Below are positions 32,368-52,827 of a DNA stretch of 64,000 bases, one piece after another. A program made the position numbers and the translations under genes. The notes under the pieces are model-generated. The model saw nothing but the letters and a program-made list of their open reading frames with translations, was not told the DNA's origin and did not search any database. Where the stretch lies: positions 2,944,001 through 3,008,000 of the forward strand of contig OZ219926.1 of NCBI GenBank assembly GCA_964291405.2, read 5' to 3'. This stretch comes from Thermodesulfobacteriota bacterium. Its GTDB lineage: Bacteria; Desulfobacterota; Binatia; Bin18. Numbering within the stretch: position 1 is the first letter of the stretch; the number at the start of each line of letters is the position of its first letter.

Positions 32368-32760
32368 TTAATCTTTCTGTCCGAACGTCTGTTCGTAGCG
32401 CGCCTTGAACGTCTCAAACAGGGTGAGTTCCTGCGCGGTATACGTCCGGTAGGTCTGGCTGGCGTGGGGAAAATAAAAGCGCAAGACAGCATTCCCCTCT
32501 GCGTCATCAAGGCTGACAAACACGCTGACGGAGTCGCCGTGCCCCAGTGCTTCGGCAAAGCGTACCTTGGTAATGGTGTCGAGGTTGGCGTGAATATGCC
32601 AGCCGCGATACTCGACCGTTGCCCACGGGTCGGCAAAATCGACCTTTCGGACCTCCTCGTCCAGAAAAAGTTCGCTGACAACCCCGTCACGTCCGACCGT
32701 ACACACCAGCGCGGGCGTGCGCGCCAAGTCTTCGAGTAACTGTTTCACGCCGGGGATCAT
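32368..32760 (-). CDS. ChuX/HutX-like (heme-utilisation fold) protein
   Basis: DGVVSE...WATVE...WHIHANL...SVFVSLDDAEGNAVLRFYF pattern. Confidence 0.55.
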   Translation of the reverse strand: MIPGVKQLLEDLARTPALVCTVGRDGVVSELFLDEEVRKVDFADPWATVEYRGWHIHANLDTITKVRFAEALGHGDSVSVFVSLDDAEGNAVLRFYFPHASQTYRTYTAQELTLFETFKARYEQTFGQKD

Positions 32761-33269
32761 ACGTTCCTCTTGATTGTCTTTTCCTCTTTTTCATAACGGT
32801 CTAAGAGGAGCTTGAGAAGACGAGGAGAAGCGCGAAAATTCGTCTTCTGTAAACGCTCAATTGCCGAGGGAAAATTGAGAAGCCCGAGTCTGGCCGCCTC
32901 GCTCAAGAGGCCGAGCAGGCCGGTCACTTTGAAACCATATTCTTTTGCAACTTGACGAGCTGCCTTCTCATCCAAAATAATCAGGTCTGCCCCCAAGTGT
33001 CGTGCCAAGAGAATTGCGTCTCGTTCGCCTGCGTGCAATCGGTCAAGTGCGGGGTTTGTCTCGCTCAGCGTAAGGGCCCCGGTATGGATGTTCGCCCAAC
33101 TAGGGGGCTGGGCTATCCAGTCCTGAAGCCCGACTGGAGCCCCTTCAGCTTTTAGCTCATCACGTACTGATTTTGGGAGGGTGACTTGACCGAATAGTTT
33201 TGGAAACAGATCAAGACAGTTAATGAGATAGAGATAGCAGATAGGGGACGTATTGGAGATAGTAATCAC
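32757..33269 (-). CDS. DUF3368 PIN-domain toxin-like protein
   Basis: ISNTSPI, LHAGERDAI, ILDEKAARQVA, TGLLGLL. Confidence 0.85.
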   Translation of the reverse strand: MITISNTSPICYLYLINCLDLFPKLFGQVTLPKSVRDELKAEGAPVGLQDWIAQPPSWANIHTGALTLSETNPALDRLHAGERDAILLARHLGADLIILDEKAARQVAKEYGFKVTGLLGLLSEAARLGLLNFPSAIERLQKTNFRASPRLLKLLLDRYEKEEKTIKRNV

Positions 33270-38560: not shown

Positions 38561-39931
38561 ATGAAAAAGTCTCACCTTCTCCTGCGAGCGCTCCCATCCG
38601 TGGAAAAACTGCTGGCAGCGCCGGCGCTTCAGCCCATCCTGGCCCGCTATAACCGAACGTATATCACCGACCTGATTCGTCAGGTCTTGGAGACGCTGCG
38701 TCAGGACATTCTATCCGGCGCACATACCACACCGCTTGCCGAACACGACCTGATCGAGCGCATTACAACCCGACTCCACAGCGAGGACCAGTCCCCGCTG
38801 CGTTCGGTCATCAATGCCACCGGCACGGTGCTGCACACCAACCTGGGGCGCGCCCTGCTGGCCCAGGCGGCCATAGACGAAGTGGTCCGGGCGGCGTCCA
38901 CACCCGTGACGCTCGAATATGACGTGTCTCGGGCCGGTCGCGGCGACCGGGACGATCTGGTCGAGGCCGACCTGACCGCCCTGACCGGCGCGGAAGCGGC
39001 CACAGTGGCGAATAATAACGCGGCCGCGGTGTTATTGGCGCTGAACACGCTGGCGGAAGGGCGGGAAGGGATCGTTTCGCGCGGAGAGCTGATCGAGATC
39101 GGCGGCTCTTTCCGCATCCCCGAGGTCATGCGCAAGAGCGGCGTGGTGCTGCGCGAGGTCGGCACGACCAACCGGACCCATCCGCACGATTATGCCAGCG
39201 CCGTCTCGGATCGGACGGGGGTTCTGCTCAAGGTGCATACCAGCAATTACCGGGTCGTGGGTTTCACCGCCGAGGTTGGCCTGGAAGAACTGGTGGCCCT
39301 GGGTAAGGAGCGTGGTGTCCCGGTCATGGAGGATTTGGGAGCCGGGGCGCTGATCGACCTGGCGCAGTACGGACTGCCACAGGAACCGGTCGTGGCCGAG
39401 CGGGTCGCCAAAGGCGCGGACGTGGTCACCTTTAGCGGCGATAAACTCCTCGGCGGGCCGCAGGCCGGGCTCATTGTGGGCCGCAAAGCCTGGGTGGACC
39501 AGATCAAAAAGAACCCGCTCAAACGGGCGCTACGCCTCGACAAGCTGACGCTGGCGGCCCTGAGCGCGACCCTGCGCCTGTACCGTCGTTCACCCCAATT
39601 GCCCCGCGACCTGCCCACCCTGCGTTGGCTGACCCGGCCGGTGCATGAAATGGAAACTCTGGCGGCCCAGGCCGTTCCGCTTATCCAGCAGGCGCTCGGC
39701 AGCGCATTCTCGCTGAGCGTCGAGCAGGCAACCGCCCAGATCGGCAGTGGGGCGCTGCCGGAGGAGGAACTCCCCAGCACGATCATTGCCGTTCGGCACG
39801 GCGAACTGTCCGCGGAAAAAATCGCCCAGCGTTTCCGGCAGGCCGATACACCCATCCTGGGCCGGATTCACAACGACACGTTCTTGCTCGACCTGCGCGG
39901 TATTTTTGATCCGCAGGACCTTGTTCCGTGA
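38561..39931 (+). CDS. selA: L-seryl-tRNA(Sec) selenium transferase
   Basis: VINATGTVLHTNLGRA, SRGELIEIGGSFRIP, FSGDKLLGGPQAG. Confidence 0.97.
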   Translation: MKKSHLLLRALPSVEKLLAAPALQPILARYNRTYITDLIRQVLETLRQDILSGAHTTPLAEHDLIERITTRLHSEDQSPLRSVINATGTVLHTNLGRALLAQAAIDEVVRAASTPVTLEYDVSRAGRGDRDDLVEADLTALTGAEAATVANNNAAAVLLALNTLAEGREGIVSRGELIEIGGSFRIPEVMRKSGVVLREVGTTNRTHPHDYASAVSDRTGVLLKVHTSNYRVVGFTAEVGLEELVALGKERGVPVMEDLGAGALIDLAQYGLPQEPVVAERVAKGADVVTFSGDKLLGGPQAGLIVGRKAWVDQIKKNPLKRALRLDKLTLAALSATLRLYRRSPQLPRDLPTLRWLTRPVHEMETLAAQAVPLIQQALGSAFSLSVEQATAQIGSGALPEEELPSTIIAVRHGELSAEKIAQRFRQADTPILGRIHNDTFLLDLRGIFDPQDLVP

Positions 39932-39937
39932 GCGGGC

Positions 39938-40123
39938 TCAGTTGTCATCGTCGTACAGTTCCTTCCGGCTCAATGTCCCGTACACAGTCCCGTTTCGCAC
40001 GCCGAGTTGAATACGATTGTGGCCATTGGCCTTCGTGTCGGTCAGTTTCCGTGCTATCTCGGCGACCACCTCCAAACCGCGGGCGATCGGTTCGGGGATA
40101 TCTTTGACATCAATGGTTTCCAT
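39938..40123 (-). CDS. Small hypothetical protein (antitoxin-like)
   Basis: 61 aa ending GTLSRKELYDD, resembling antitoxin tails; no partner gene. Confidence 0.5.
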   Translation of the reverse strand: METIDVKDIPEPIARGLEVVAEIARKLTDTKANGHNRIQLGVRNGTVYGTLSRKELYDDDN

Positions 40124-40150
40124 ATTCTAACCAAGACGGTCACGAGGATT

Positions 40151-40245
40151 TGGCGGAGAAGGGATGGAGTCGAACCATCCGCGCAACTTACGCCACGCAA
40201 CTCGGTTTTGAAGACCGGTACGGCCACCGGGCCATATCCTTCCCC
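40151..40245 (-). tRNA. selC: tRNA-Sec (UCA)
   Basis: 8-bp acceptor GGGGAAGG/CCTTCTCC, 6-bp D stem, CTTCAAA anticodon loop, long variable arm, 5-bp T stem with TTCGACT loop, GCCA end; 95 nt; next to selA. Confidence 0.95.
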
Positions 40246-40984: not shown

Positions 40985-41056
40985 GCCATGATGGATACTC
41001 GTTTGTGAGAAGTGACGGTGAAGGAAATATGAGAGAATTAAGTGGAGAAACAAAAG

Positions 41057-41290
41057 TTACGAGTCTTCTTGTTCACCACCAGAAACGGCATTAGGTCCGC
41101 TAGAGGTTTCAACTTCAATCTTACCTCTTTCGCCCCAATGGAAGATAAATCGGAAATTCTTGTTTTTGAGAACCACGGCGTAGAGAAGTATTCCTACCAC
41201 CGTCCCAATAAAAAAACTGATGAGATCAAATGTGAAACCCGTGGGGAGCAGGCTCTCAAACATCCTATTAGGCAGCCTGCTCTTCCACAA
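41057..41290 (-). CDS. Small single-TM hypothetical protein
   Basis: Hydrophobic FDLISFFIGTVVGILLYAVVL; overlaps the RHH gene. Confidence 0.5.
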   Translation of the reverse strand: MWKSRLPNRMFESLLPTGFTFDLISFFIGTVVGILLYAVVLKNKNFRFIFHWGERGKIEVETSSGPNAVSGGEQEDS

Positions 41291-41504
41291 GCGATTCTAG
41301 TTGAGGAAACACCACTTCTACTTGCGAGGAATCATCTCTCTCAAGTATGATTTTGCTCTTCTTTTCGTATTTTTCGTTTGCAAGCCACCGGAGAACACCA
41401 AGAGCGTGGTTGACGACTTCACCCCTAGACTTTGCGTTGAGAATTTCTTTCAACGAGTCTAGCTCTTTCACGGCTGCATCAGAAAATTCAAATTGGATTC
41501 GCAT
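41268..41504 (-). CDS. Ribbon-helix-helix (CopG-like) protein
   Basis: MRIQFEFS beta-strand followed by the helices ELDSLKE...SRGEVVNHAL. Confidence 0.7.
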   Translation of the reverse strand: MRIQFEFSDAAVKELDSLKEILNAKSRGEVVNHALGVLRWLANEKYEKKSKIILERDDSSQVEVVFPQLESLVEEQAA

Positions 41505-41727
41505 AATTCATATTTCAATCAGAGTCGGCGATAGAGCCAACCCTTGTTTCTTGTTCAATTTTCTCCAAAGGCAGAGTTTCCTTCGGGGCGCGCGGTTTCT
41601 CCTCAATCTCTAGCCGCGTTCCATCAACTTGCCCCCCATCTTCCACATGGTTTTCTTGTTCCACTACATAACCTCCCCGTTATTCTGCCATACATTGTGT
41701 GTCCCTCCTTTCGCTGAGTACTTCTGA

Positions 41728-41791
41728 ATAGTACTAATAAGAGAGTTTATTGTCAATTAAGCACAATATTTATTCTCATAAAACTCTCTTA
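41728..41791 (-). promoter_or_regulatory. Sigma70 promoter with flanking inverted repeat
   Basis: Minus strand TTGACA (41756-51), 17-nt spacer, TACTAT (41733-28); inverted repeat TAAGAGAGTTT (41738-48) / AAACTCTCTTA (41781-91). Confidence 0.7.
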
Positions 41792-41871
41792 ATACTCCCC
41801 CTCAGGCAGACATAACAGTTCAGCGGGTTGGAACAGCGGCCTATCACAGGAAGACGGGGCGGTGTCCGAAA

Positions 41872-41900
41872 TTGACAGACTCACCGGAAGATTTTATAGC
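41872..41900 (+). promoter_or_regulatory. Sigma70-like promoter (copy 2), upstream of the small gene and the dnd operon
   Basis: TTGACA-17-TATAGC. Confidence 0.55.
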
Positions 41901-41925
41901 GGAGGACTGAAGGGAGAGGGGCGGT

Positions 41926-42246
41926 ATGGCCGGCCAACCAAATATCCATAAGAAGATGGATAAAATTCTGCAAAAGCTGACGACGCTGGAAGCGAACGAC
42001 AAGGGACTGGCCAAGCAGACCAACTACCTGGCGCAACTGGTCGTGCTAGCCAAGCAGGACTCTGCCCGCCAACATCAGGAGTCCCAGACGCTGTTGCACG
42101 ACATGGGGCAAATGCTCTTGGAAGTCAGAAAATCCTCGGTCCAGACTGAGTCGATGGTACACGATGTGGGGCAAATGCTCTTGGAAGTCAGAAAAATCTC
42201 ATCTCGAACCGAGGGGAGATACTCGCGGAAACGCGCAGGGGTGTAG
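41926..42246 (+). CDS. Small coiled-coil protein (direct repeat A copy 2)
   Basis: Internal 21-aa repeat HD[MV]GQMLLEVRK; the tail is shifted by a 10-nt deletion relative to copy 1. Confidence 0.6.
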   Translation: MAGQPNIHKKMDKILQKLTTLEANDKGLAKQTNYLAQLVVLAKQDSARQHQESQTLLHDMGQMLLEVRKSSVQTESMVHDVGQMLLEVRKISSRTEGRYSRKRAGV

Positions 42247-42328
42247 CTTAATAAATACCGCGTTGGTAGAAAAATCTTGTTAAGAAAATCCGTCAGTCCG
42301 AAAAGGTGAGGGGAACTATTTTAGGACA

Positions 42329-43621
42329 ATGGACATGAACACATACGAAGATATTAAGAGCGCGTTACGACAGCTCTACCTAGAGGACGACCGGCCTTGG
42401 CTTGTGGGGTTTAGTGGAGGGAAGGACAGCACCATGCTCGCCTCGCTCATCTTCGAGACTGTCCTTTCGTTTCCAATAGAAAGACGAACAAAACCCATCT
42501 CCGTCCTTTGCACAGATACCCGAGTCGAAATCCCTGCCATTGTTGAAATGGTCGAAGGAACCCTGGAGAAGATGCGCAAGTGTTCGGAAAAGAACAACAT
42601 GCGTATAGATGTCAATCTCCTTCGCCCTCCCGCTGACCAGTCATTTTGGGTCAACATTATTGGGCGTGGGTATCCTCCGCCGAATCGTGTCTTTCGCTGG
42701 TGCACACAGCGCATGAAGATTGATCCGGTTACTACCTTTGTTCAGCAACGTCTCGGTCATTGGGGCGAGGCAATTCTCCACCTTGGTGCACGACGTGCCG
42801 AGAGTAGCAGCCGGGCGCAGACAATGGCGGGCCGTGAATCACGAAACGGACTTCATCGTCACCCGAACTTGCCTCGGGTGTGGGTGTCCAATCCAATCGA
42901 GTTTCTGAGTACGGACGAGGTATGGACCTATTTATTGCAAAATCCGAATCCATGGGGGACAAACAATCGCTCTTTGTTTGCGCTCTATGCACGAAGCGGC
43001 GACTGTCCGATCCAAATTGACACGAGTACCCCGAGCTGCGGCAAGAGCCGGTTCGGCTGTTGGACCTGTACGGTTGTCGAGCGTGATAAGGCAAGCGAAG
43101 GCTTACTTGCGAGTGGTGACGAACGTATGGAAGACCTGATCGAATTCAGGGAGACGCTTATACGCTATCGTGACCCGGAGAACGGAAAGCGAGACATGAA
43201 GCGGATGAACGGAAGCGATGGCCCTGGTCCGCTTACTATGACTGCTCGTCGTGAATTGTTGACCCAACTCCTCAAATTACAGGAGCAGACCGGCCTGAAA
43301 GTTATCAGCGAGGATGAATTGTTTCTTATTCAAAAGCATTGGAAAGCCGCCCGTCAACCCGATGATGGCGGTGGTGTAGGACGCATTGTCACTCGTCAGA
43401 GAGGAATCATCATGAAGGACTGGAAGGAAGTAAACCAGTTGCGGGACCTGGAGGAGGAGGTCGTAGCTGAGAAAGGCATCCGTGCAGATACCTTACGGCG
43501 TCTGCTTGCAAAAGTTGAAGAATACAGCGAGCGCCATCGTGCCTATGGCTTACCGGATGATATGCTGAACATCCTGAAAGACGATATGGAGCACGAAAAG
43601 GAAGCGCTCGAAGATGCCTGA
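42329..43621 (+). CDS. dndC: DNA phosphorothioation sulfurtransferase DndC
   Basis: PWLVGFSGGKDST, FWVNIIGRGYP, FRWCTQRMKI, SCGKSRFGCWTCTVV. Confidence 0.95.
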   Translation: MDMNTYEDIKSALRQLYLEDDRPWLVGFSGGKDSTMLASLIFETVLSFPIERRTKPISVLCTDTRVEIPAIVEMVEGTLEKMRKCSEKNNMRIDVNLLRPPADQSFWVNIIGRGYPPPNRVFRWCTQRMKIDPVTTFVQQRLGHWGEAILHLGARRAESSSRAQTMAGRESRNGLHRHPNLPRVWVSNPIEFLSTDEVWTYLLQNPNPWGTNNRSLFALYARSGDCPIQIDTSTPSCGKSRFGCWTCTVVERDKASEGLLASGDERMEDLIEFRETLIRYRDPENGKRDMKRMNGSDGPGPLTMTARRELLTQLLKLQEQTGLKVISEDELFLIQKHWKAARQPDDGGGVGRIVTRQRGIIMKDWKEVNQLRDLEEEVVAEKGIRADTLRRLLAKVEEYSERHRAYGLPDDMLNILKDDMEHEKEALEDA

Positions 43622-45677
43622 CGTCTATATTGACGAACTCACGCTGGAGAATTTCGGCCCTTATTATGGTGAGCACACTTTCAATTTCGGCACAGTAGAG
43701 GACCGTTGTGGCATTCTTATCGGTGGTAAGAATGGCGCAGGAAAAACGCACTTACTCCGGGCGCTGTATCTCGCAGTCGTCGGAGAAGCTGGCGTTGGGG
43801 ATCTCAAAAAAGTAGAGCCGGCCTCCGAAGCGACACGGTTTATATTTGAGAGGTCGCTGAACCGGCGGGCTCAAGCAGAAGGTAAAGATACCGTTCGGCT
43901 TCAAGTCAAGATTTCCCAAATCGGTGAGACAGGCGGTGGGAGTCGAAAGGCCGTACTGGTTAGGGAGATTCGTCACCGACCATCCGGACCAAAATGGTCC
44001 TCCTATGCAGACCGCATGGACGGGTCTGGGCGAATTGAAGAGGAAAAGCACTTATCCAAACTCCGAGATACACTCCTTCCTCGGCATTTGGCTCGATTTT
44101 TTTTCTTCGACGCGGAGCGGGGTCAAAATTTCAACCTGGGGCAACAGGAAATCGTTGAAGGTATTAGCCGCATATTGGGGCTATGGTCTTACGACGAACT
44201 TGAAACCGACTTGCGCAATCTGATTCAGAATAAAATTCCGCGTGTGTTCAATGCTTCCGGGGAATATGAAGCGGCACAGAAACTTGCCGATATATCTGGA
44301 CAGATCGTCACGACAGAGAAGAAGCTCATCGCCCTGAAGGACGAGTTAAAAAGCACTGAACTTGAGCTGTCTGAAAACCAAACGGAACTCGATGAAGTGG
44401 AGGAGCAGCTCAAGAGCATTGGAGCTGTTGACCCTCAAGAATTAAATCGAGCACAGGCAGCTCGAACGGAGTTGGCGGAAACCAAGGCTAAGCTCGAAAC
44501 CGAGCTAACATCGGCATGGGAACAAGCCATGCCAGTAGCCCTGATGGGGGGCTACCGTAATGAACTGCACAATGACCTTATTCGAGAAGAGAAACGTAGA
44601 GAATGGGAGAGTAGTCGGGCGACAGTTGAGCCAAAGATTCCTCAGGTAAAGCAAGATGTTTTTGAGAAAGTGCCATCTGAGTACCGATTAGCGGACGATG
44701 TTTGCGCCTTCTATGCTGATCGTTTAGAGCACGCCCTCCATCGTTTATTTCACCCACCACCTGAAGGAATGGCAGAAAGCATCTTTATAACAGACCGCAA
44801 TGACCGGAGTGCTCAGATTCGAGACCGGTTGAAGACTGGAACAAATTCTTTACCGGGTGTCACAGAGCTATGTGAACAAGTGGAATCTATTGACGCGGAT
44901 CTACGGGAAATTGATGGAAGAATCAGACAACTTAAGCAAGACACCGGAACGATGGAACTTGGGGCAGAGCTTCATAAGCGGCGCGGAGAGTTGACAACAC
45001 AGTACGGTCATTTGGAGAACAAAAAGAAAGAGATAGAACAACGGATCGTGACACTTGAAGGCGATCTTCAGGAGCAGAAACGTGAGGAGACAAACCTGAC
45101 GAACTTGGCGACAAAAGCACGGCAGGGTAAAAACCTGACTGCATTAGCGGCGTCTTATCGTGAGGCGACAAAAGAGATCCGCGTTCGTGCCGCTGAACAG
45201 CTTCGGCGGAGAATTTCCGAGTATGTTGGAGAATTGTGGACAGAAATCACGGAACGCCAGCGAGAATTCTTGGGAATGGAATTTGATAAGAACTGGAACT
45301 GCTTGCTGCTCGGCCGCAACGGCGAAAAGTTGTCCTGGGAAGGAGCGAATACATCAGCCGGTCAGCGACAGGTACGTATGTTAGCCTTTTACGAGGCACT
45401 TCGCCGCCTGGCGAAGGTCGCACCGCCATTAGTCGTTGATACTCCCCTGGGCCGCCTCGATAAGGAAGTCAAAGATAGTGTGCTTGATAGACTGTATTTA
45501 ACAGGACACCAGACTATCTTTCTGACTACGAATTCAGAAGTTGATCCTAGTGGGCCTTTGTTTGAAAGGCTTCGAGGCAGATTTGGACGCATGTATACCT
45601 TGCACCCATACGGTCAAGAGGACAGCGATAACTATGAAGTACGCGTAACTAACGACTACTTCGGGAGTAGGCCATGA
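43614..45677 (+). CDS. dndD: DNA sulfur modification ATPase DndD (SMC-like)
   Basis: ENFGPYYG, GKNGAGKT, FFFFDAE, coiled coil, SAGQRQ, VVDTPLGRLD. Confidence 0.92.
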   Translation: MPDVYIDELTLENFGPYYGEHTFNFGTVEDRCGILIGGKNGAGKTHLLRALYLAVVGEAGVGDLKKVEPASEATRFIFERSLNRRAQAEGKDTVRLQVKISQIGETGGGSRKAVLVREIRHRPSGPKWSSYADRMDGSGRIEEEKHLSKLRDTLLPRHLARFFFFDAERGQNFNLGQQEIVEGISRILGLWSYDELETDLRNLIQNKIPRVFNASGEYEAAQKLADISGQIVTTEKKLIALKDELKSTELELSENQTELDEVEEQLKSIGAVDPQELNRAQAARTELAETKAKLETELTSAWEQAMPVALMGGYRNELHNDLIREEKRREWESSRATVEPKIPQVKQDVFEKVPSEYRLADDVCAFYADRLEHALHRLFHPPPEGMAESIFITDRNDRSAQIRDRLKTGTNSLPGVTELCEQVESIDADLREIDGRIRQLKQDTGTMELGAELHKRRGELTTQYGHLENKKKEIEQRIVTLEGDLQEQKREETNLTNLATKARQGKNLTALAASYREATKEIRVRAAEQLRRRISEYVGELWTEITERQREFLGMEFDKNWNCLLLGRNGEKLSWEGANTSAGQRQVRMLAFYEALRRLAKVAPPLVVDTPLGRLDKEVKDSVLDRLYLTGHQTIFLTTNSEVDPSGPLFERLRGRFGRMYTLHPYGQEDSDNYEVRVTNDYFGSRP

Positions 45678-47230
45678 GGTTTAAGCCGAGCCTTGCTACT
45701 GAGGAATTTATAGAAAAAGTTCACCAACAAGTTGGAGCACGCAACAAAGCCGTTTTAGGCCGTTCGGCTCTTTTTCTGGCTCTTGGGGAGGGCGTTCGGC
45801 CTGGTTTTAAGCCTGAGAATTCTCAAGGAAAAGACCTTGATGATGAAATCGTGATTAACGATGAACTGCGCGATGTTGTGCGGGCAGCACTCAATCATCG
45901 TGCAGGAAAAACATTGAGCGAGAGTGAGTATCGCAGATCATTCCGGAAACATTTTGAATATGGCTGTCAACGATTAAAAGAAATCTGGGAGGAGTCGAGA
46001 AACGATCAGACACGCTTTGTCGCCGCTCTACTCAAAATTACCAGCCCTGACTTTGGTGAGAGTCGGAAAACTCACGTTACACCCACACCCGTAGTAGAGC
46101 AAATAGTAGAGCAAGAGGTTAAACTAAAGGTATTGGCTGAGACTCCTGAATGGAGCATCAATGGTCCAGGTACGAAGAACGGGCTTCTCGTCATTTCCGG
46201 TGAACCAGGTTCAGGCAAGAGCCAACTTGCTCTTGATCTCCTCGCCCAGTTGTCCAGTCAGGGGGTGCGTTTTGTTTTCTTCGACCTTAAAGGCGAATTA
46301 GAAGACGACCCGAATAATCCTCAGCAGCGCAAGAATCGGACACAATTCTTACAACAGACCGGAGCACACCACATACGGCTCATTCAGCAAAGCTTACCCA
46401 TCAATCCACTCTACCGCTCCCCAGACCCGACTCGAAACGCTCAGATTGCCTATGAGATTGCCGGTTTAATTCGCTGCTTCGCGCGCCAACTCGGTGCGAA
46501 ACAAGAGCGGAGTATTAGCGATACATATCAGCAACTTCCGACTCCTGACTTCTCATCTCTCGCCCTCCAACTTGAGCAAAATGGTTCAGAGGGCGTAGAT
46601 TTAGCCATCATACAAAAGATCAATCGACTCAACATATTTGCCAATGCCTCAAGTTCGCTTGGTCTTGAGGAAGGACTCAATAATTCAGCCGTTAGAAACT
46701 TACTCAACCAGGAAAAGACGACCATCAGTCTGGAGGAGTGGCTCAACAGTTCAATAGTGATTGACTTCAAAGACATGGGGAACGATAGCGAAACCAAGGC
46801 ATTGATTGTCGCACTTATCTTGAATTTCCTAATGAAGCATCTGAATCAGAATCTTGCCGTGAAGAATAACATCCAACCTATCAAAATGGTGCTTTTTGTG
46901 GACGAGGCTCATCTTTTGCTGCCAAAAGAAGGCAGGGCAGGTTTACTCGGTTCCCTTGCGCGTCAGGGTCGTTCATGGGGATTCCCGGTGTGGCTCGCCT
47001 CTCAGGACGCCGATGCTTTTGTGACAACGGGCGATCACGCGACCAACTTTGCTGAGCTTGCGGAGTGCGGAGTACACTTTTCGCCGCATACGCTAAGTGA
47101 TGCACAGCAGAGGAAAGTGCTTGGGGGAGTCATTCGTCGCGAATTGAAAAAGGCTGAAGCTGCTTTACGTTTGCAAGGCAACCTTACAGTGGCGTCGGCG
47201 AGGCAGTTTTGGAAGGATCAAGGCAGTTAG
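45674..47230 (+). CDS. dndE: DndE-like domain fused to a HerA/FtsK-type ATPase (DndEi-like)
   Basis: The N-terminal ~120 aa follow the DndE pattern (VLGRSALFLAL...FRKHFEYG); Walker A GEPGSGKS, FFDLKGE, Walker B LFVDEAH, RQGRSWG...ASQ; ATGA coupling to dndD. Confidence 0.78.
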   Translation: MRFKPSLATEEFIEKVHQQVGARNKAVLGRSALFLALGEGVRPGFKPENSQGKDLDDEIVINDELRDVVRAALNHRAGKTLSESEYRRSFRKHFEYGCQRLKEIWEESRNDQTRFVAALLKITSPDFGESRKTHVTPTPVVEQIVEQEVKLKVLAETPEWSINGPGTKNGLLVISGEPGSGKSQLALDLLAQLSSQGVRFVFFDLKGELEDDPNNPQQRKNRTQFLQQTGAHHIRLIQQSLPINPLYRSPDPTRNAQIAYEIAGLIRCFARQLGAKQERSISDTYQQLPTPDFSSLALQLEQNGSEGVDLAIIQKINRLNIFANASSSLGLEEGLNNSAVRNLLNQEKTTISLEEWLNSSIVIDFKDMGNDSETKALIVALILNFLMKHLNQNLAVKNNIQPIKMVLFVDEAHLLLPKEGRAGLLGSLARQGRSWGFPVWLASQDADAFVTTGDHATNFAELAECGVHFSPHTLSDAQQRKVLGGVIRRELKKAEAALRLQGNLTVASARQFWKDQGS

Positions 47231-47232
47231 CT

Positions 47233-48303
47233 ATGGCTAAGAAACCTCAATCAGAGAAATTTTTAGATTCCATACCCGCCCTTGAGGTCTTACAGGGTGA
47301 GACGACTTTCTACTTATTTGCAATTTCAGCAAAGAAACTTCTTCGAATAGCTTACACTTCCGAGAGGACCCAGTATAACCGAGAAGGAATTCAGCGTGGC
47401 CTACGTCCCGACCGCCTTAGAGATATTGGTAAATTTCTCACTGCAAACGGCTCAAATCCACCGCTCCTGCCCAACGCCATAATCATCAGCCTTAGTTCAA
47501 AGAGTTATTACAAAGATGGTCGCCTTCATATTCGCGAATGTCCTTCCGGGGAAGCGTTCGTCATTGATGGCCAACATCGTCTCTGGGCGTTCGATCCACA
47601 ATATTCAGGAGAAGCCGACCTTGATGTCGTCGTAACCGCCTTCATAGATCTTGACGACTCCGGTAAGGCATCCATCTTTCGGTCTATCAACGGGAATCAG
47701 AGAAAAATCAATCCTTCGCTAGTCTATGATCTCATTCCGATGTTGCGCAACCAGGAAACGGTAGCCTTCGAAGACAGGAGATGCCGAGACCTCGTTGCGC
47801 TTCTTAATGAAGAGACTCCTGACTCTCCATGGAAGAATCGTATTAGTATGGTGGGTGGTGGGAACCGCATAATAAGTCAGTCGTCGTTTATTTCCGCGCT
47901 CAAAAAACTCTTTAAGAAAGATCACCTTTTCGCCAGTAAAAACTCAGACTTCTTTGAGCAACGTATTCAGCATGACCTCTTACTTGAATATTTCAAAGCA
48001 ATTCAAAGTTCATATTCTGTTCAATGGGACAATAAGGCATTCTTTCTGTGCAAATATGTTGGAGTATCTGCGTTACTGAATCTCCTTGAACGTATTATTG
48101 CGGATCTCAAAGAAAATGGCATACCTGTTAGCGATAAGAACGGACTCTGCATAGACAAAATGACCTTCGCACCATACGTAAAAAAACTGAAACAATTCTC
48201 TTTCAGTACCGCTGAGGAGAAGGAAAAAGGTATCACTTACGTAGGCGAGGGTGGAATTCGTGAACTAACTAAGCGGGTGATTTCTCTCGTATTTCCCTCC
48301 TGA
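47233..48303 (+). CDS. DGQHR-domain protein (DndB-like)
   Basis: GIQR, LLPNAIII, VIDGQHRL, IFRSINGNQRKI. Confidence 0.88.
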   Translation: MAKKPQSEKFLDSIPALEVLQGETTFYLFAISAKKLLRIAYTSERTQYNREGIQRGLRPDRLRDIGKFLTANGSNPPLLPNAIIISLSSKSYYKDGRLHIRECPSGEAFVIDGQHRLWAFDPQYSGEADLDVVVTAFIDLDDSGKASIFRSINGNQRKINPSLVYDLIPMLRNQETVAFEDRRCRDLVALLNEETPDSPWKNRISMVGGGNRIISQSSFISALKKLFKKDHLFASKNSDFFEQRIQHDLLLEYFKAIQSSYSVQWDNKAFFLCKYVGVSALLNLLERIIADLKENGIPVSDKNGLCIDKMTFAPYVKKLKQFSFSTAEEKEKGITYVGEGGIRELTKRVISLVFPS

Positions 48304-48304
48304 T

Positions 48305-49291
48305 ATGACCACAGTAATTGCTTCTCATTCACCTGATACTAAATCTATGCTGAGTCACACTTGGCTTCTGGACGACCAGAAGGTGGCTCTCGTATCTGCA
48401 CCATTCGCAGCAAATAGGACATCCGTCTCTGCTCATCTTAGTGGTTGGCTAGTAGAGAATAATTACCAGGATGACGTGAAGAAGAGTGGCCTCTATATTG
48501 AAGACCCCCAAATTACTGTCTGCCTCATGAATCAAGCGTTGGAGTTTCTTCAGAGAGCCATGGGGAACACCGTGGCCCATTATGTGCTCGCAAAGAAGGG
48601 CCTAGAAACATGGGCGCGCGTCACGAATTACTATGCGGGCTATTTCTCTGTTTGTGGCTTGCTTTGTCTTCAGGGGCGAACGATTACAAGGCTATCGCTA
48701 GATAAATCGCCAGATAAAAAGACTACAGTTCAGGTAGTGCCTGTTAATTTACACGGTCATATTTTTGGCATAACGCCCTTTGTGCCGAAGAAGTCCCAAC
48801 ACGAAGTCCCATGGAATCGATTCTATGATATCTATGACCGCTACGCAGTCTCGCACCAAGCTTACGAGATTGTCGCGAGGAGGGCGCATACTACTGAGCC
48901 AGCCGATGAGTCCATCGAAAGGAACTCGATTAACTACACACCATTTGTTGGCTTTAACGAGATCCAGGACTTAAATCGCCGTCAAGGGTTCACAAACCTT
49001 TTCGAAGAATACCTATCCACCCTAGAAGGAAAGACTACCCTAGAAGCATTTCTAGTTGATCTTCAAGGCTACGCGACAGACACAGACTGCAAATATTTTG
49101 CCAGAACCTTACTGAGGTTAGCGCTCGCTGGAGATATTCTATTGGCACTCCGGGAAGTTAGTAATGCTTTAGAAGGAGCGTGGGCTTCCATGACGAGAAA
49201 ATGGGAGAGCTTCTTAAGTACGATATTCGCTGAAATAGATAATTGCTACTTGCTACGCTTCGTTCCCCTTATTGGGACTAGCCCGAACTGA
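48305..49291 (+). CDS. Hypothetical protein, HEPN-like
   Basis: WARVTNYYAGYFSVCGLLCLQG, SQHEVPW and ERNSINY resemble the HEPN YY, H and Rx4[HY] motifs; starts about 1-2 nt after the DGQHR stop. Confidence 0.55.
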   Translation: MTTVIASHSPDTKSMLSHTWLLDDQKVALVSAPFAANRTSVSAHLSGWLVENNYQDDVKKSGLYIEDPQITVCLMNQALEFLQRAMGNTVAHYVLAKKGLETWARVTNYYAGYFSVCGLLCLQGRTITRLSLDKSPDKKTTVQVVPVNLHGHIFGITPFVPKKSQHEVPWNRFYDIYDRYAVSHQAYEIVARRAHTTEPADESIERNSINYTPFVGFNEIQDLNRRQGFTNLFEEYLSTLEGKTTLEAFLVDLQGYATDTDCKYFARTLLRLALAGDILLALREVSNALEGAWASMTRKWESFLSTIFAEIDNCYLLRFVPLIGTSPN

Positions 49292-49412
49292 GTCCTGCCA
49301 CTAGTGAACCTGATGAAGCTTCCTCGGGTCACAGGTCTCAAACCTTTCTATCTCTAATCGGACATTATTGATCCCGCTTGGGTAATATTCTTGGTGACAG
49401 AGGGAAGTTAGG

Positions 49413-49694
49413 ATGAAGCTCGATGTCGTTGACGCCTGTTTTATCGGGGTAGCAGCCCGGTCACATGGAAAAATCCAAGCCGGAGAGGGGTTGGTGAGCA
49501 AAATGCTCGTGGAATGTGATGAGCAGGGCGTAGCACTCCCCGACCCGGAGGAAAAAGCGCTGTACCGGATTTGTAGAGATGGAGAGGACGCCTCTCCACT
49601 GACAGAAGCGATGACGCTCGAAGCGCATCAGGCACTCATCAACCTTTTGCTGAGAGGTCGGGAAGGGATAGGGGGGAAGTTGGCTGAGCTATGA
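49413..49694 (+). CDS. Small hypothetical protein (direct repeat B copy 1)
   Basis: Paralog of 51148-51411. Confidence 0.55.
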   Translation: MKLDVVDACFIGVAARSHGKIQAGEGLVSKMLVECDEQGVALPDPEEKALYRICRDGEDASPLTEAMTLEAHQALINLLLRGREGIGGKLAEL

Positions 49695-49710
49695 AAATCG
49701 GTAAATCCGG

Positions 49711-50919
49711 TCATGCTTTCAGCCAGTCCCCAACGGGTTTCAACAGGAATGCCTCAAGGTCGATGCCGTCGCCCCCGACGAGCAGCTTACGCGTGGGTCG
49801 AAACGCCTCGGAAAAGGCCGCCATGCCCGCCAGCGTATCAACCGCGCGCCCGCTCTTGACCTCAATAGCAACCAGGCTGTTGCCGGCACGGACGACGAAA
49901 TCCACCTCACGGTTACGCTCACGCCAGTAATAGGCTTGGCACTCACCTACGGCCGCGGCGTTGGCCAGATGCGCGCCAACCGCGGACTCGACCAGGCGTC
50001 CCCAAAAGGCAGGGTCTTGGCGGGCCTGCCTGAGTGTCATGCCGGCCTGGGCCGTGATCAGAGCAGTGTTGAAGACCTGGAGCTTGGGGCTCGACGCCCG
50101 CCGCCGCGCTACGCCTCCGGCGTATTTTTGCAGGCCGGTGACCAGACCCGCACCGGACAAGAGGTCGAGGTAATGGGCCAAGGTGGTCGCGTTGCCGGCA
50201 TCTTGGAGCTGGCCGAGCATCTTGGTGTAGGACAGAATCTGTCCGGAGTAGGCGCAGCTCAGTTCAAGCAGTCTGCGTAGCAAAGCCGGCTTGTCGACGC
50301 GAGAGAGGAGCAGCACGTCGCGGGAGATGACAGGTTCAATAAGCGCGTCGCGGACGTAGCGCGCCCAGCGGACCGGCTGTCGGATGAGCGGGGCCGCGCC
50401 GGGATACGCACCGTAGAAGAGGTAGTGCTCCAGAGACCAGCCAAATGTCTGTTGCATTTCGGCAAGGCTCCAGTGCGGCAGACGCACCATCTCGAAACGT
50501 CCGGCCAGGCTCTCGCTCAGGCCGCGCTCGACCAGGAGTGGCGCCGAGCCGAGCAAAACGACCTTGAGCGGACGGCCTATGCGAGTGTCAGCATCCCACA
50601 GGTGCTTCACCGTCTCCGACCAGCCCGTGACCTTCTGCACCTCGTCGAGAACCAGGAGCGCCCCGTCCGTATCTGCCGCATCGGTGAGACTCCGCGCGGC
50701 CTCCCACTGCTGTTCAATCCACTGGACGCCGCGTAAAGTCGGCTCGTCCGCACTGGCATAGCGGGTCGGCAGGCCGGACTGCCTTGCGGCCTGCCCCGCC
50801 AGCGTCGTCTTGCCGACCTGCCGGGCACCGGCAACGACCTGGATAAAACGACGCGGCTCCAGCAGCCGGCTGGTCAACTCTTTGGCCTGGAGACGAGTAT
50901 AGCCGGACAATTTGCTCAT
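49711..50919 (-). CDS. AAA+ ATPase with DUF4143 / PD-(D/E)xK C-terminus
   Basis: GARQVGKTT, LDEVQK, ESLAGRF, YWRERNREVDFV...AIEVKSG. Confidence 0.92.
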   Translation of the reverse strand: MSKLSGYTRLQAKELTSRLLEPRRFIQVVAGARQVGKTTLAGQAARQSGLPTRYASADEPTLRGVQWIEQQWEAARSLTDAADTDGALLVLDEVQKVTGWSETVKHLWDADTRIGRPLKVVLLGSAPLLVERGLSESLAGRFEMVRLPHWSLAEMQQTFGWSLEHYLFYGAYPGAAPLIRQPVRWARYVRDALIEPVISRDVLLLSRVDKPALLRRLLELSCAYSGQILSYTKMLGQLQDAGNATTLAHYLDLLSGAGLVTGLQKYAGGVARRRASSPKLQVFNTALITAQAGMTLRQARQDPAFWGRLVESAVGAHLANAAAVGECQAYYWRERNREVDFVVRAGNSLVAIEVKSGRAVDTLAGMAAFSEAFRPTRKLLVGGDGIDLEAFLLKPVGDWLKA

Positions 50920-51863: not shown

Positions 51864-52092
51864 GAGGGCTGCACAGCATTGTGATTTGCCCTAGGGCGTA
51901 AAACGCTCTCGCCTCGGGATCACACAAACCCTTGTCCGCCCACATGAAACACGGTAGAACTCAGGCCAGGAGCGGCTCGAAGGGAGAGTGTGGAGAGACG
52001 GAGGTTCCTTTTTACGGGGGAAGTATCCCCCGAGTCCCCTCCTCCGTTTTTCTTTTGGGGATAGCGCCGCTCCGGGCAGTGCGAGGCAAGAC

Positions 52093-52827
52093 ATGCGGGT
52101 GACAGTGCTTGGCGCGGGCGATGCGTTCTGTAGCGGGGGGCGGCGCCATAGCGGCTATCTGGTTGAAGCCCCCGGTGCCTGCTTTCTGCTCGATTGCGGC
52201 ACGACCACGCTGCTCGCCCTCAAATCGCTCGGTATTTCAGCGGACCGCATAGACTTTGTGGCCATCAGCCATCTGCACGGCGATCATTTTGGCGGCCTGC
52301 CGTTTCTCTTTCTCGAATATATCTATGAAAAACAGCGCTCCCGGCCCCTCACCATCGTCGGGCCGCCGGGGACCGAAGAGCGGGTGCGCACTCTCCACGC
52401 CACTATGTACCGCGAGTTGTCGCAACGGCCGTGCTGCTTTGATATGCGCTTCCGGGAACTGATGCCGGGCCAGCAGACGGCCCTCTTCGGCGTGCAGTTG
52501 TTTCCCTTCCGTGTGCCGCACCAGGAGCGGGATATTTCGTTTGGCTATCGGGCCGAAACCGCCGGTCGGGCGCTGTTGTATTCGGGCGACTGCGGCTGGA
52601 ACGAGGATTTGATCCGGTATTCGCGCGGGACCGACCTGTTTATCTGTGAGTGTTGCTATTTTCAGACCGAGACCTCATTCCATATCAGCTATCCCAGGAT
52701 CGCCCAGGAGCAGCATCGCCTGGGCTGTAAACGCCTGCTGCTCAGCCATATTGGCCGGGAAGTCCTTGAACGGCAGGGCGAGGTCTCGCTGGAATGCGCC
52801 CATGACGGGATGGTGATCGAGGTCTAG
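52093..52827 (+). CDS. MBL-fold metallo-hydrolase (RNase Z/BN-like)
   Basis: VLGAGDAF, LLDCG, SHLHGDHFGG, YSGD. Confidence 0.9.
   Translation: MRVTVLGAGDAFCSGGRRHSGYLVEAPGACFLLDCGTTTLLALKSLGISADRIDFVAISHLHGDHFGGLPFLFLEYIYEKQRSRPLTIVGPPGTEERVRTLHATMYRELSQRPCCFDMRFRELMPGQQTALFGVQLFPFRVPHQERDISFGYRAETAGRALLYSGDCGWNEDLIRYSRGTDLFICECCYFQTETSFHISYPRIAQEQHRLGCKRLLLSHIGREVLERQGEVSLECAHDGMVIEV

Follow-up and report, generated by a model that had tools for sequence, protein, structure and literature searches.

A 64,000-nucleotide stretch of a Thermodesulfobacteriota genome (contig OZ219926.1, positions 2,944,001 to 3,008,000; hereafter the window) carries a five-gene operon in which a phosphorothioate (PT) DNA-modification module, dndC-dndD-dndEi, is followed by a gene for a DGQHR protein and a gene for a 328-residue protein that we call X. 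We found that the DGQHR protein and X form an obligate pair and that this pair accompanies a DNA-modification module, made up of dnd/pbe genes or of a DNA methyltransferase of family PF01555 or PF02086, in every locus with enough flanking sequence. To judge by its predicted structure and by its profile tie to PF05168, X is a divergent HEPN domain with a four-helix up-and-down core. We lean, with moderate confidence, towards the view that the pair is a modification-sensing restriction or abortive-infection effector taking the place of DndFGH.

The tie between the last gene of the operon and DGQHR genes, raised in a preliminary description of this DNA, was followed through 48 related loci. A DGQHR gene lies upstream of X in 45 of them and the other three have no upstream sequence. 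In 11 of the 13 loci from species genomes tblastn placed the DGQHR gene immediately 5' of X, on the same strand; the exceptions are L011, where a 544-residue open reading frame (ORF) stands between the two genes, and L001, which has no upstream sequence. Among the metagenome loci the two genes are directly adjacent in 33 of 35, the remaining two (L056 and L077) having no room for an upstream gene. Distant X-like genes in two genomes (G198 and G312) of a 401-genome sample of the phylum both have a PF14072 gene directly upstream.

The modification module that goes with the pair comes in two kinds. In the clade of the window the homologues are tied to dnd genes, and the order dndC-dndD-dndEi-DGQHR-X recurs in metagenome-assembled genomes (MAGs) labelled Binatia, Nitrospirales, Terriglobia, Acidobacteriota, Chromatiales, Syntrophaceae and Deltaproteobacteria. 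A convergent class-V aminotransferase gene (PF00266, DndA-like) lies downstream of X in 14 related loci; the window lacks it, as do L010 and L070, the two loci most closely related to it. Three loci (L013, L061 and L073) have the pair with classical dndC/D(E); in L061 an HNH gene is directly upstream of the pair and in L073 a PbeA-like helicase gene adjoins. L011 shows the order pbeA (E 1.8e-231), pbeC (E 1e-189), a 136-residue ORF, an AIPR/AbiU gene, DGQHR, the 544-residue ORF and X. The second clade, with 19 loci and DGQHR proteins at about 47-53% identity, has no dnd genes. Here a DNA methyltransferase gene is adjacent in 16 of the 16 loci with room for it, the other three contigs being too short. 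It is of the PF01555 type in 12 loci and of the PF02086 type in four; Pfam confirmed it in 11 loci and tblastn in the remainder. The usual form of this clade is a tight three-gene operon, DGQHR-X-methyltransferase, with overlaps or gaps of a few nucleotides, and some of these triads are flanked by housekeeping genes or adjoin integrases. A tree inferred by maximum likelihood from 42 DGQHR sequences (L001, L048, L056, L060, L068, L072 and L077 are omitted, their DGQHR match being short or missing) separated 16 methylase-linked from 26 PT-linked sequences, each group with 100% support in the Shimodaira-Hasegawa-like approximate likelihood ratio test (SH-aLRT). Within the 26 dnd/pbe-linked sequences the 22 linked to dndCDEi form one clade (99%), and the methylase clade consists of 14 sequences with an adjacent methyltransferase and two on contigs too short to show one.

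X gave no match in Pfam, NCBIfam or PADLOC at E ≤ 0.01. Pfam searched at E ≤ 1 with X and two relatives returned single chance hits only, as did a sequence-profile search of the PDB with the X alignment A1 (E ≥ 0.26). In a large protein collection X has 77 homologues, none functionally named, those with an annotation being hypothetical proteins; searching with a profile brought up 117 cluster representatives (56 at E ≤ 1e-10), all stand-alone proteins of 61-339 residues with none longer than X, many of them fragments, and zero fusions. No match was obtained by tblastn with X and P0204 against plasmid and phage collections. The YY(x)3F, H and RNSINY motifs that the preliminary description had picked out proved real and not due to chance: they correspond to YYAGYF at residues 109-114, H166 and RNSINY at 206-211. 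In a 31-sequence superfamily alignment, with 16-58% identity to the window protein, the only invariant columns are Y109, H166, R206 and Y211, and Y110, G124, W170 and E219 are conserved at 90% or more. This pattern suggests an enzyme, the Y/H/R/Y set being more typical of catalysis, and according to the alignments the motifs are both the signature of the X family and that of one HEPN subgroup.

The AlphaFold (AF2) model of X, built from 25 sequences, has a mean predicted local distance difference test score (pLDDT) of 90.5 and a predicted template modelling score of 0.91, and is mostly helical with a small sheet at 126-158. When aligned by VIA with 48,161 chains it found HEPN proteins at the top, led by 2hsb_A (Z 8.7, root-mean-square deviation 3.3, 123 of 126 residues aligned) and followed by 4nqf_B (Z 8.2), 1ufb_A (7.5), 1wol_A (7.5) and 3o10_A, the HEPN domain of sacsin (7.2). 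Csm6, a HEPN toxin, HepS and AbiV stand at lower ranks, with matches over model residues ~70-285. In the protein atlas the clusters nearest to X are unnamed, and the nearest one with a Pfam family is HEPN_AbiV at 0.78, which we take as a lead only. Sequence profiles led to the same fold. Of 71 distant X relatives, four have a sub-threshold PF05168 match on the first two helices and the other 67 have no HEPN match. In a genome search the superfamily profile A2 matched small ORFs, and the four of these that were tested were all PF05168 HEPN proteins above the cut-off (51-69 bits); two further matches, outside these four, carry internal stops. Compared by hhalign with six PF05168 HEPN proteins of the “YY-type”, A2 gave a probability of 94.5% (E 7.4e-8) over 135 columns, which is the whole of the small domain, with YY109-110 falling on YY, H166 on the His of KHS and R206-x4-Y211 on R-x4-Y. 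This profile alignment would place R206 and Y211 at the classical HEPN catalytic site. The HEPN-like nature first suspected for the last ORF is thus borne out by the structural matches and by a profile in which all three motifs align.

The DGQHR protein scored 129 bits with TIGR03187 (cut-off 58.85) and 43 bits with PF14072 (cut-off 29.1), the direct match to the latter covering profile positions 1-160 of 338 only. Its best named model is DpdB (PADLOC E 2.6e-28; NCBIfam NF041060 97 bits, far under the 300-bit cut-off). The DGQHR motif is at residue 112 of the 356-residue form. In the predicted structure (pLDDT 83) the N-terminal half adopts a ParB-N/sulfiredoxin fold (Foldseek 5k5d_B E 9.6e-4; VIA Z ~6); the C-terminal half is helical and did not clearly match any structure. 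An alignment of the DGQHR subfamily compared by hhalign with 14 other PF14072 proteins of ~375 residues matched at 100% (E 1.2e-44) over 332 columns, that is over the full length, and the DGQHR protein is on this evidence a complete DndB-family protein. DndB has been described as a ParB-like domain fused to HEPN (PMC3632139), and we considered a “split DndB” in which X would be the detached HEPN half. This was rejected: the DGQHR protein is full-length against PF14072 proteins, no HEPN chain turned up for its C-terminal half, and both X and the HEPN set gave 0.1% against PF14072 proteins by hhalign, from which it follows that X is not a detached piece of DndB. A prediction of the complex of the DGQHR protein (A4) and X (A1) scored 0.28 against a mark of 0.32 in a run without controls and has no weight either way.

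We then looked for other restriction partners of the PT module in the window and in the genome (97.5% complete, 3 contigs). The preliminary description had reported that no dndA, dndFGH, pbe or ssp genes occur in the window, and this held in our scan: DndF/G/H, Pbe and Ssp models gave no match at E ≤ 1e-8 in the 47 other window ORFs of at least 110 residues, a single PbeA helicase-fragment match excepted. Within the window the DndH models match solely the HerA/FtsK ATPase part of DndEi and there is no PADLOC match to DndF or DndG. Throughout the genome no match was found to DUF262 (PF03235), the sensor domain of DndI and SspE, for which a control was positive in 7 of 14 genomes. Full-length pbeA was not found in it either, where generic helicase pieces only were seen and the control matched in 14 of 14 genomes. 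PF03235 is also absent from the DGQHR protein, and neither this protein nor X has an HNH domain. The genome yielded no further restriction module of the PT-dependent kind.

We propose a system in two halves. DndC, DndD and DndEi would make up the PT DNA-modification module, and a cysteine desulfurase whose gene lies elsewhere in the genome would supply its sulphur, since the dndA gene found next to the operon in most relatives is missing here; no cysteine desulfurase gene lies beside the operon in the window and 15 PF00266 matches lie elsewhere in the genome. The other half would be the DGQHR and HEPN module, co-transcribed with and translationally coupled to the first. The DGQHR NTPase would read the modification state of DNA. 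On modified self DNA it would hydrolyse NTP and be released, in analogy to what DUF262 domains do in DndI and SspE, and on unmodified invader DNA it would license its HEPN partner, which would then cleave nucleic acid. RNA is the likelier substrate by fold, leading to growth arrest or abortive infection, and DNA would also be possible. HEPN domains are typically metal-independent RNases, and growth arrest rather than DNA cutting may therefore be the outcome. We infer PT production, the binding of the two proteins to each other, the signal sensed, and the nuclease activity and its substrate. A precedent is given by DndI and SspE, which combine a PT-sensing ParB-like DGQxR NTPase with a nuclease domain: PT-stimulated NTP hydrolysis frees the protein from self DNA and the fused HNH domain nicks unmodified DNA (PMC11662687).

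The strongest argument for a restriction-like role of the pair is its methylase-linked sister clade. Being joined to two chemically unrelated DNA-marking systems, the pair is most simply their reader or restriction side, and the fact that it is never split, together with the enzyme-like invariant residues of X, makes this the simplest assignment. The defence neighbours described above (pbeA, pbeC and AIPR genes in L011, HNH in L061 and the PbeA-like helicase in L073) favour it as well. The preliminary description had suggested a PT-linked abortive-infection or guard module in which a nucleotide-sensing DGQHR protein may gate a HEPN-like RNase. The HEPN identity and the linkage to DGQHR and dnd genes uphold the suggestion in part, and a growth-arrest outcome would agree with it; the restriction to PT has to be given up in view of the methyltransferase sister clade.

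Alternatively, the pair could be an elaborated DndB that serves modification as an accessory or regulatory factor and would tune expression, level or targeting in a solitary PT system lacking restriction (R-minus M-plus). We consider this rather unlikely. It would accommodate the full-length homology of the DGQHR protein to PF14072 proteins and the translational coupling of the pair to dndEi, and PF05168 carries the name of a nucleotide-binding domain. No second PF14072 gene was found in the genome, and the DGQHR protein is therefore the only candidate for the role of DndB, which represses dndBCDE and limits the PT level; moreover, dndFGH is lacking from 615 of 1349 dnd clusters in a survey quoted in the same paper (PMC6435447). 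In L061, L073 and L011, however, the pair forms a transcription unit separate from the dnd genes and stands with HNH, PbeA or AIPR genes, and the Y/H/R/Y set of X stays invariant across its wide range of identity, as would be more typical of catalysis. In addition, operons join the same pair to methyltransferases of PF01555 and PF02086, families whose enzymes are known to act alone, and there is little reason why a lone methylase on a three-gene island flanked by integrases should need a two-protein regulator of ~700 residues. The pair could also be a self-contained toxin-antitoxin or abortive-infection (Abi) module that does not read modification, in which HEPN would be the toxin and the DGQHR protein its antitoxin or a phage sensor. 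By sequence, X is indeed closest to small PF05168 HEPN proteins, which we take to be of the kind found in MNT-HEPN modules. Defence genes cluster, and a PDC-S01 gene adjoins this operon; where dnd neighbourhoods end, HEPN and PIN RNases have been reported and read as possible backup suicide effectors (PMC10853773). Yet every locus long enough to show one carries a modification module, including all 16 tight operons of the methylase clade, and the DGQHR tree splits cleanly by modification type, which is unexpected from chance co-location; such a module is in our opinion quite improbable. We give as little credence to a classical DNA-restricting restriction-modification system in which the DGQHR protein would be a DNA nuclease or nickase and X its specificity or regulatory subunit. 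The ParB superfamily does include nucleases, DndB perhaps among them (PMC3632139, PMC10853773), and X is without the canonical HEPN catalytic His, but the strongest invariant polar set sits in X, the DGQHR motif is an NTPase motif in DndI (PMC11662687), and the parts of the literature searched do not report nuclease activity for the PF14072 branch.

Several observations weigh against the modification-sensing effector that we favour. No DNase motif is recognisable in the DGQHR protein or in X, and in the clade of the window the position of the pair downstream in the modification operon is a layout that also fits an accessory factor. By its sequence the DGQHR protein is a member of PF14072, the DndB/DpdB branch, whereas DndI and SspE are of the DUF262 branch. 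One of the two characterised members of the PF14072 branch, DpdB, is a modification-side ATPase, and PF05168-type HEPN domains include nucleotide-binding, non-catalytic members. The other characterised member, DndB, is a transcriptional regulator (PMC6435447). The canonical HEPN motif R-x4-6-H is not present in X, where the invariant Y211 stands at the His position and H166 lies elsewhere; the aligned PF05168 subgroup has R-x4-Y like X. As to the fold, the VIA Z values of at most 8.7 are in a range that, as the tool warns, common helical arrangements can give, and Foldseek with the X model against the PDB returned nothing at E ≤ 0.001, the highest-probability hit (0.33) being the HEPN domain of sacsin. 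The six YY-type HEPN proteins were picked after the same profile had hit four of them and are not an independent set; against 13 mixed PF05168 proteins hhalign gave 0.4% with A1 and 19% with A2, and the shallower alignment A3 gave 15.6% against the YY-type proteins. The neighbourhood sets come from contigs of MAGs and metagenomes; many of these are short and some are close relatives of one another, and the locus counts are therefore not counts of independent events. Finally, the preliminary description had considered that dndFGH elsewhere in the genome might account for restriction. None was found genome-wide with TIGR03236, TIGR03237 and TIGR03238, a negative for which the control genomes were silent too, leaving it without a positive control.

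The operon (42329-49291; Table 1) is made of the five coupled genes on the + strand that the preliminary description had listed, with intact, stop-free frames and, for the first four, identities that family scans established.

Table 1. The five genes of the operon, in window positions.
Gene and predicted product	Position	Strand	Matches
dndC, PAPS-reductase/PP-loop sulfurtransferase of the PT modification module	42329..43621	+	TIGR03183, PADLOC DndC
dndD, ABC/SMC-like ATPase, adjoining dndE	43614..45677	+	PADLOC DndD
dndEi, fusion of a DndE domain and a HerA/FtsK-type P-loop ATPase	45674..47230	+	PF08870, mad8, DndH C-terminal region
DGQHR protein, full-length DndB-family ParB/Srx-fold predicted NTPase	47233..48303	+	TIGR03187, PF14072, DpdB
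X328 (“X”), 328 residues, divergent HEPN-domain protein by prediction	48305..49291	+	structure and profile matches

DndC scored 369.6 bits with TIGR03183 (cut-off 290.4; PADLOC DndC E 1.1e-122) and has the PP-loop SGGKDS at residues 29-34 and cysteines at 226, 237, 244 and 247. DndD matched PADLOC DndD over residues 6-683, its full length (E 4.6e-66), and is a divergent DndD, since its 190 bits with TIGR03185 stay below the cut-off of 245.85. In DndEi, PF08870 covers residues 2-103 (31.7 bits, cut-off 25) and the ATPase part matched PADLOC mad8 (E 1.2e-19) and the C-terminal region of DndH (E 4.6e-16). The two Walker A motifs of the operon are GKNGAGKT at residue 38 of DndD and GEPGSGKS at residue 176 of DndEi. 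The DndE-ATPase fusion is the known DndEi and is not new: it is the helicase/ATPase needed for PT in Riemerella (PMC6435447), and a DndE-fused “clade-3” HerA/FtsK domain has been described (PMC10853773). This had been missed in the preliminary description, as had the convergent dndA of most relatives and the methyltransferase-coupled sister clade. At the junctions, dndC and dndD overlap by 8 nucleotides and dndD and dndEi by 4, and a 1-nucleotide gap separates DGQHR from X. DGQHR follows dndEi after a 2-nucleotide gap if it starts at the ATG at 47233, or overlaps it by 22 nucleotides from the alternative TTG at 47209; the ATG is probably the start because the database form (P0080) begins there, at M9. 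The DGQHR gene thus lies 3' of dndEi, and on the upstream side of dndC there are small unnamed ORFs only and no DGQHR gene. These ORFs (102, 88 and 106 residues, upstream) and one of 93 residues downstream (window 41042-42246 and 49413-49694) are kept with the operon in L070 at 58-92% identity, and the 93-residue ORF is found also in L010; the 106-residue ORF has an internal repeat and is present in two copies in L070. A scan of 41500-50000 for promoters and terminators gave counts no higher than those of shuffled sequences.

Some relatives depart from this layout. Between X and the convergent dndA, L001 (1790-3393) and L002 (11119-12774) have a small gene of the SAM-methyltransferase fold (Methyltransf_25; PADLOC mad2 E 2e-14) and an unnamed gene of 319-334 residues. 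In two loci, L123 (838-3366; genome G012, same genus) and L124 (57-3531; G188), dndEi is 74-75% identical and is followed by a small unnamed ORF and then by a different, longer PF14072 protein of 414-430 residues (~28% identical to that of the window), with no relative of X; in L123 a convergent dndA comes after the longer PF14072 gene. It seems that dndCDEi operons end, on the 3' side, in a variable slot always occupied by a DGQHR protein. In L011 (7405-10969), from a MAG labelled Rokubacteria, the DGQHR protein is short (316 residues), and the 544-residue ORF before X, which has no family, matches in its last ~64 residues the C-terminal tail (residues 299-362) of the DGQHR protein of the window. 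About 1.5 kb has apparently been inserted into this DGQHR gene, and the tail may be the portion important to the partner. Three loci look decayed, whether truly or by error of MAG assembly: L006 has dndC and then DGQHR-X with no dndD or dndEi and with an altered X C-terminus, L012 keeps a 90-residue piece of dndD only, and L013 has DGQHR and X each in two frames. L012 is from a MAG labelled Klebsiella pneumoniae; all other hosts are environmental. Among the methylase-linked loci, L049 has a match to the archaeal phage integrase family and L055 one to the archaeal A24 peptidase C-terminal domain; these two neighbourhoods are archaeal in type, and the pair probably exists in archaea as well.

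The locus is in our reading a horizontally acquired defence island, and its distribution is patchy. Its G+C content is 0.48-0.52 at about 40-50 kb of the window as compared to ~0.60 around, and X was found in two of the 24 further genomes of this genus that were searched, in one of them only as a 62-residue fragment, and in none of 16 more distant relatives. On the left, selA (PF03841, E 2.5e-157) is followed by a selenocysteine tRNA gene (tRNA-SeC, 40151-40245, - strand; both within window 38561-40245), which forms the edge of the low-G+C stretch with a fall from ~0.62 to 0.52. Insertion of the dnd island may have taken place next to this tRNA gene; no integrase was seen. On the right (49711-50919, - strand) is an AAA_14 and DUF4143 ATPase gene of the PADLOC candidate defence family PDC-S01 (E 2e-172). 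Its protein had no tblastn match in the closest relative, L010, and the gene looks for this reason like a separate insertion; in L010, ~330 nucleotides past the match to the 93-residue ORF, there is a 279-residue ORF equal, by comparison of length only, to the ORF of the metallo-beta-lactamase-fold protein that the window has at 51988-52827 (+ strand). The latter scored 33 bits with anti-Pycsar Apyc1, below the threshold of 50. A 170-residue ORF of the PADLOC candidate family PDC-S70 (E 3.8e-46) lies at 32757-33269 (- strand) in a stretch of lower G+C (0.54).

From a broader point of view, about half of the dnd clusters are without a known restriction partner (PMC6435447; PMC10853773), and the locus is a testable candidate for one group of them. 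In the literature searched we found no description of a DndB-family and HEPN pair as a partner of dnd genes or methyltransferases; the supplementary neighbourhood tables of PMC10853773, which were outside the search, may list it. What comes nearest is the finding of dndC beside MNT-HEPN genes (PMC12914056), together with the border HEPN and PIN RNases and the ParB-HEPN description of DndB cited above. The DndB branch of the ParB superfamily would gain a possible effector-side role, the role of DndB itself being unsettled (PMC10853773). We also speculate, with rather low confidence, that the pair is a widespread new class of restriction module that would read PT in one clade and base methylation in the other, unmarked DNA unleashing a HEPN RNase rather than DNA cutting. 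If this were true it would be a restriction-modification system with abortive infection as its restriction arm, in bacteria and probably archaea. The occurrence of the same pair with ordinary DNA methyltransferases may define a general type of modification-dependent immunity based on a ParB-fold NTPase and HEPN, and the three-gene methylase versions are small enough for direct testing.

Among known systems, the PrrC and RloC anticodon nucleases also link a HEPN-type RNase to a DNA modification system, type I restriction-modification, where they are a suicide back-up guarding an existing restriction enzyme. In contrast, no other restriction enzyme is present here, and the pair would therefore itself be the restriction side. 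The PF05168 HEPN proteins with “YY...KHS...R-x4-DY” (~126 residues) share the motif columns and the four-helix core of X, whereas X has in addition an N-terminal extension, an insert after helix 2 (strands 126-158) and C-terminal helices, lacks a Pfam match of its own, and is partnered by the DGQHR protein and not by a nucleotidyltransferase. DndB belongs to the same PF14072 family over its full length and shares the DGQHR motif and the association with dnd genes; it is encoded upstream of dndC, while here the gene is at the 3' end after dndEi, a HEPN gene always comes next, and a sister clade is methylase-linked without dnd genes. DpdB, the DGQHR ATPase of the 7-deazaguanine Dpd system, is the best-scoring named model, yet the score is far under the family cut-off and neither dpdA nor other dpd genes are found here. 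With DndFGH and PbeABCD the pair has no sequence relationship and would share the same logical slot, that of a variable module on dndCDE(A), although in L011 it stands beside pbeA and pbeC and does not replace them. There is a parallel in organisation with DndI and SspE, of the IscS-DndBCDE-DndI and SspABCD-SspE systems, in which a DUF262 DGQQR NTPase is fused to a DUF1524 HNH nickase. As predicted from sequence, the pair differs from them in being two separate proteins with a PF14072 rather than a DUF262 NTPase and a HEPN rather than an HNH effector, and in serving methyltransferases too. It has in common with them the combination of a ParB-superfamily DGQxR NTPase and an effector and the coupling to PT genes, and a module of the DndI/SspE type can, as we propose for the pair, stand in for DndFGH (PMC11662687).

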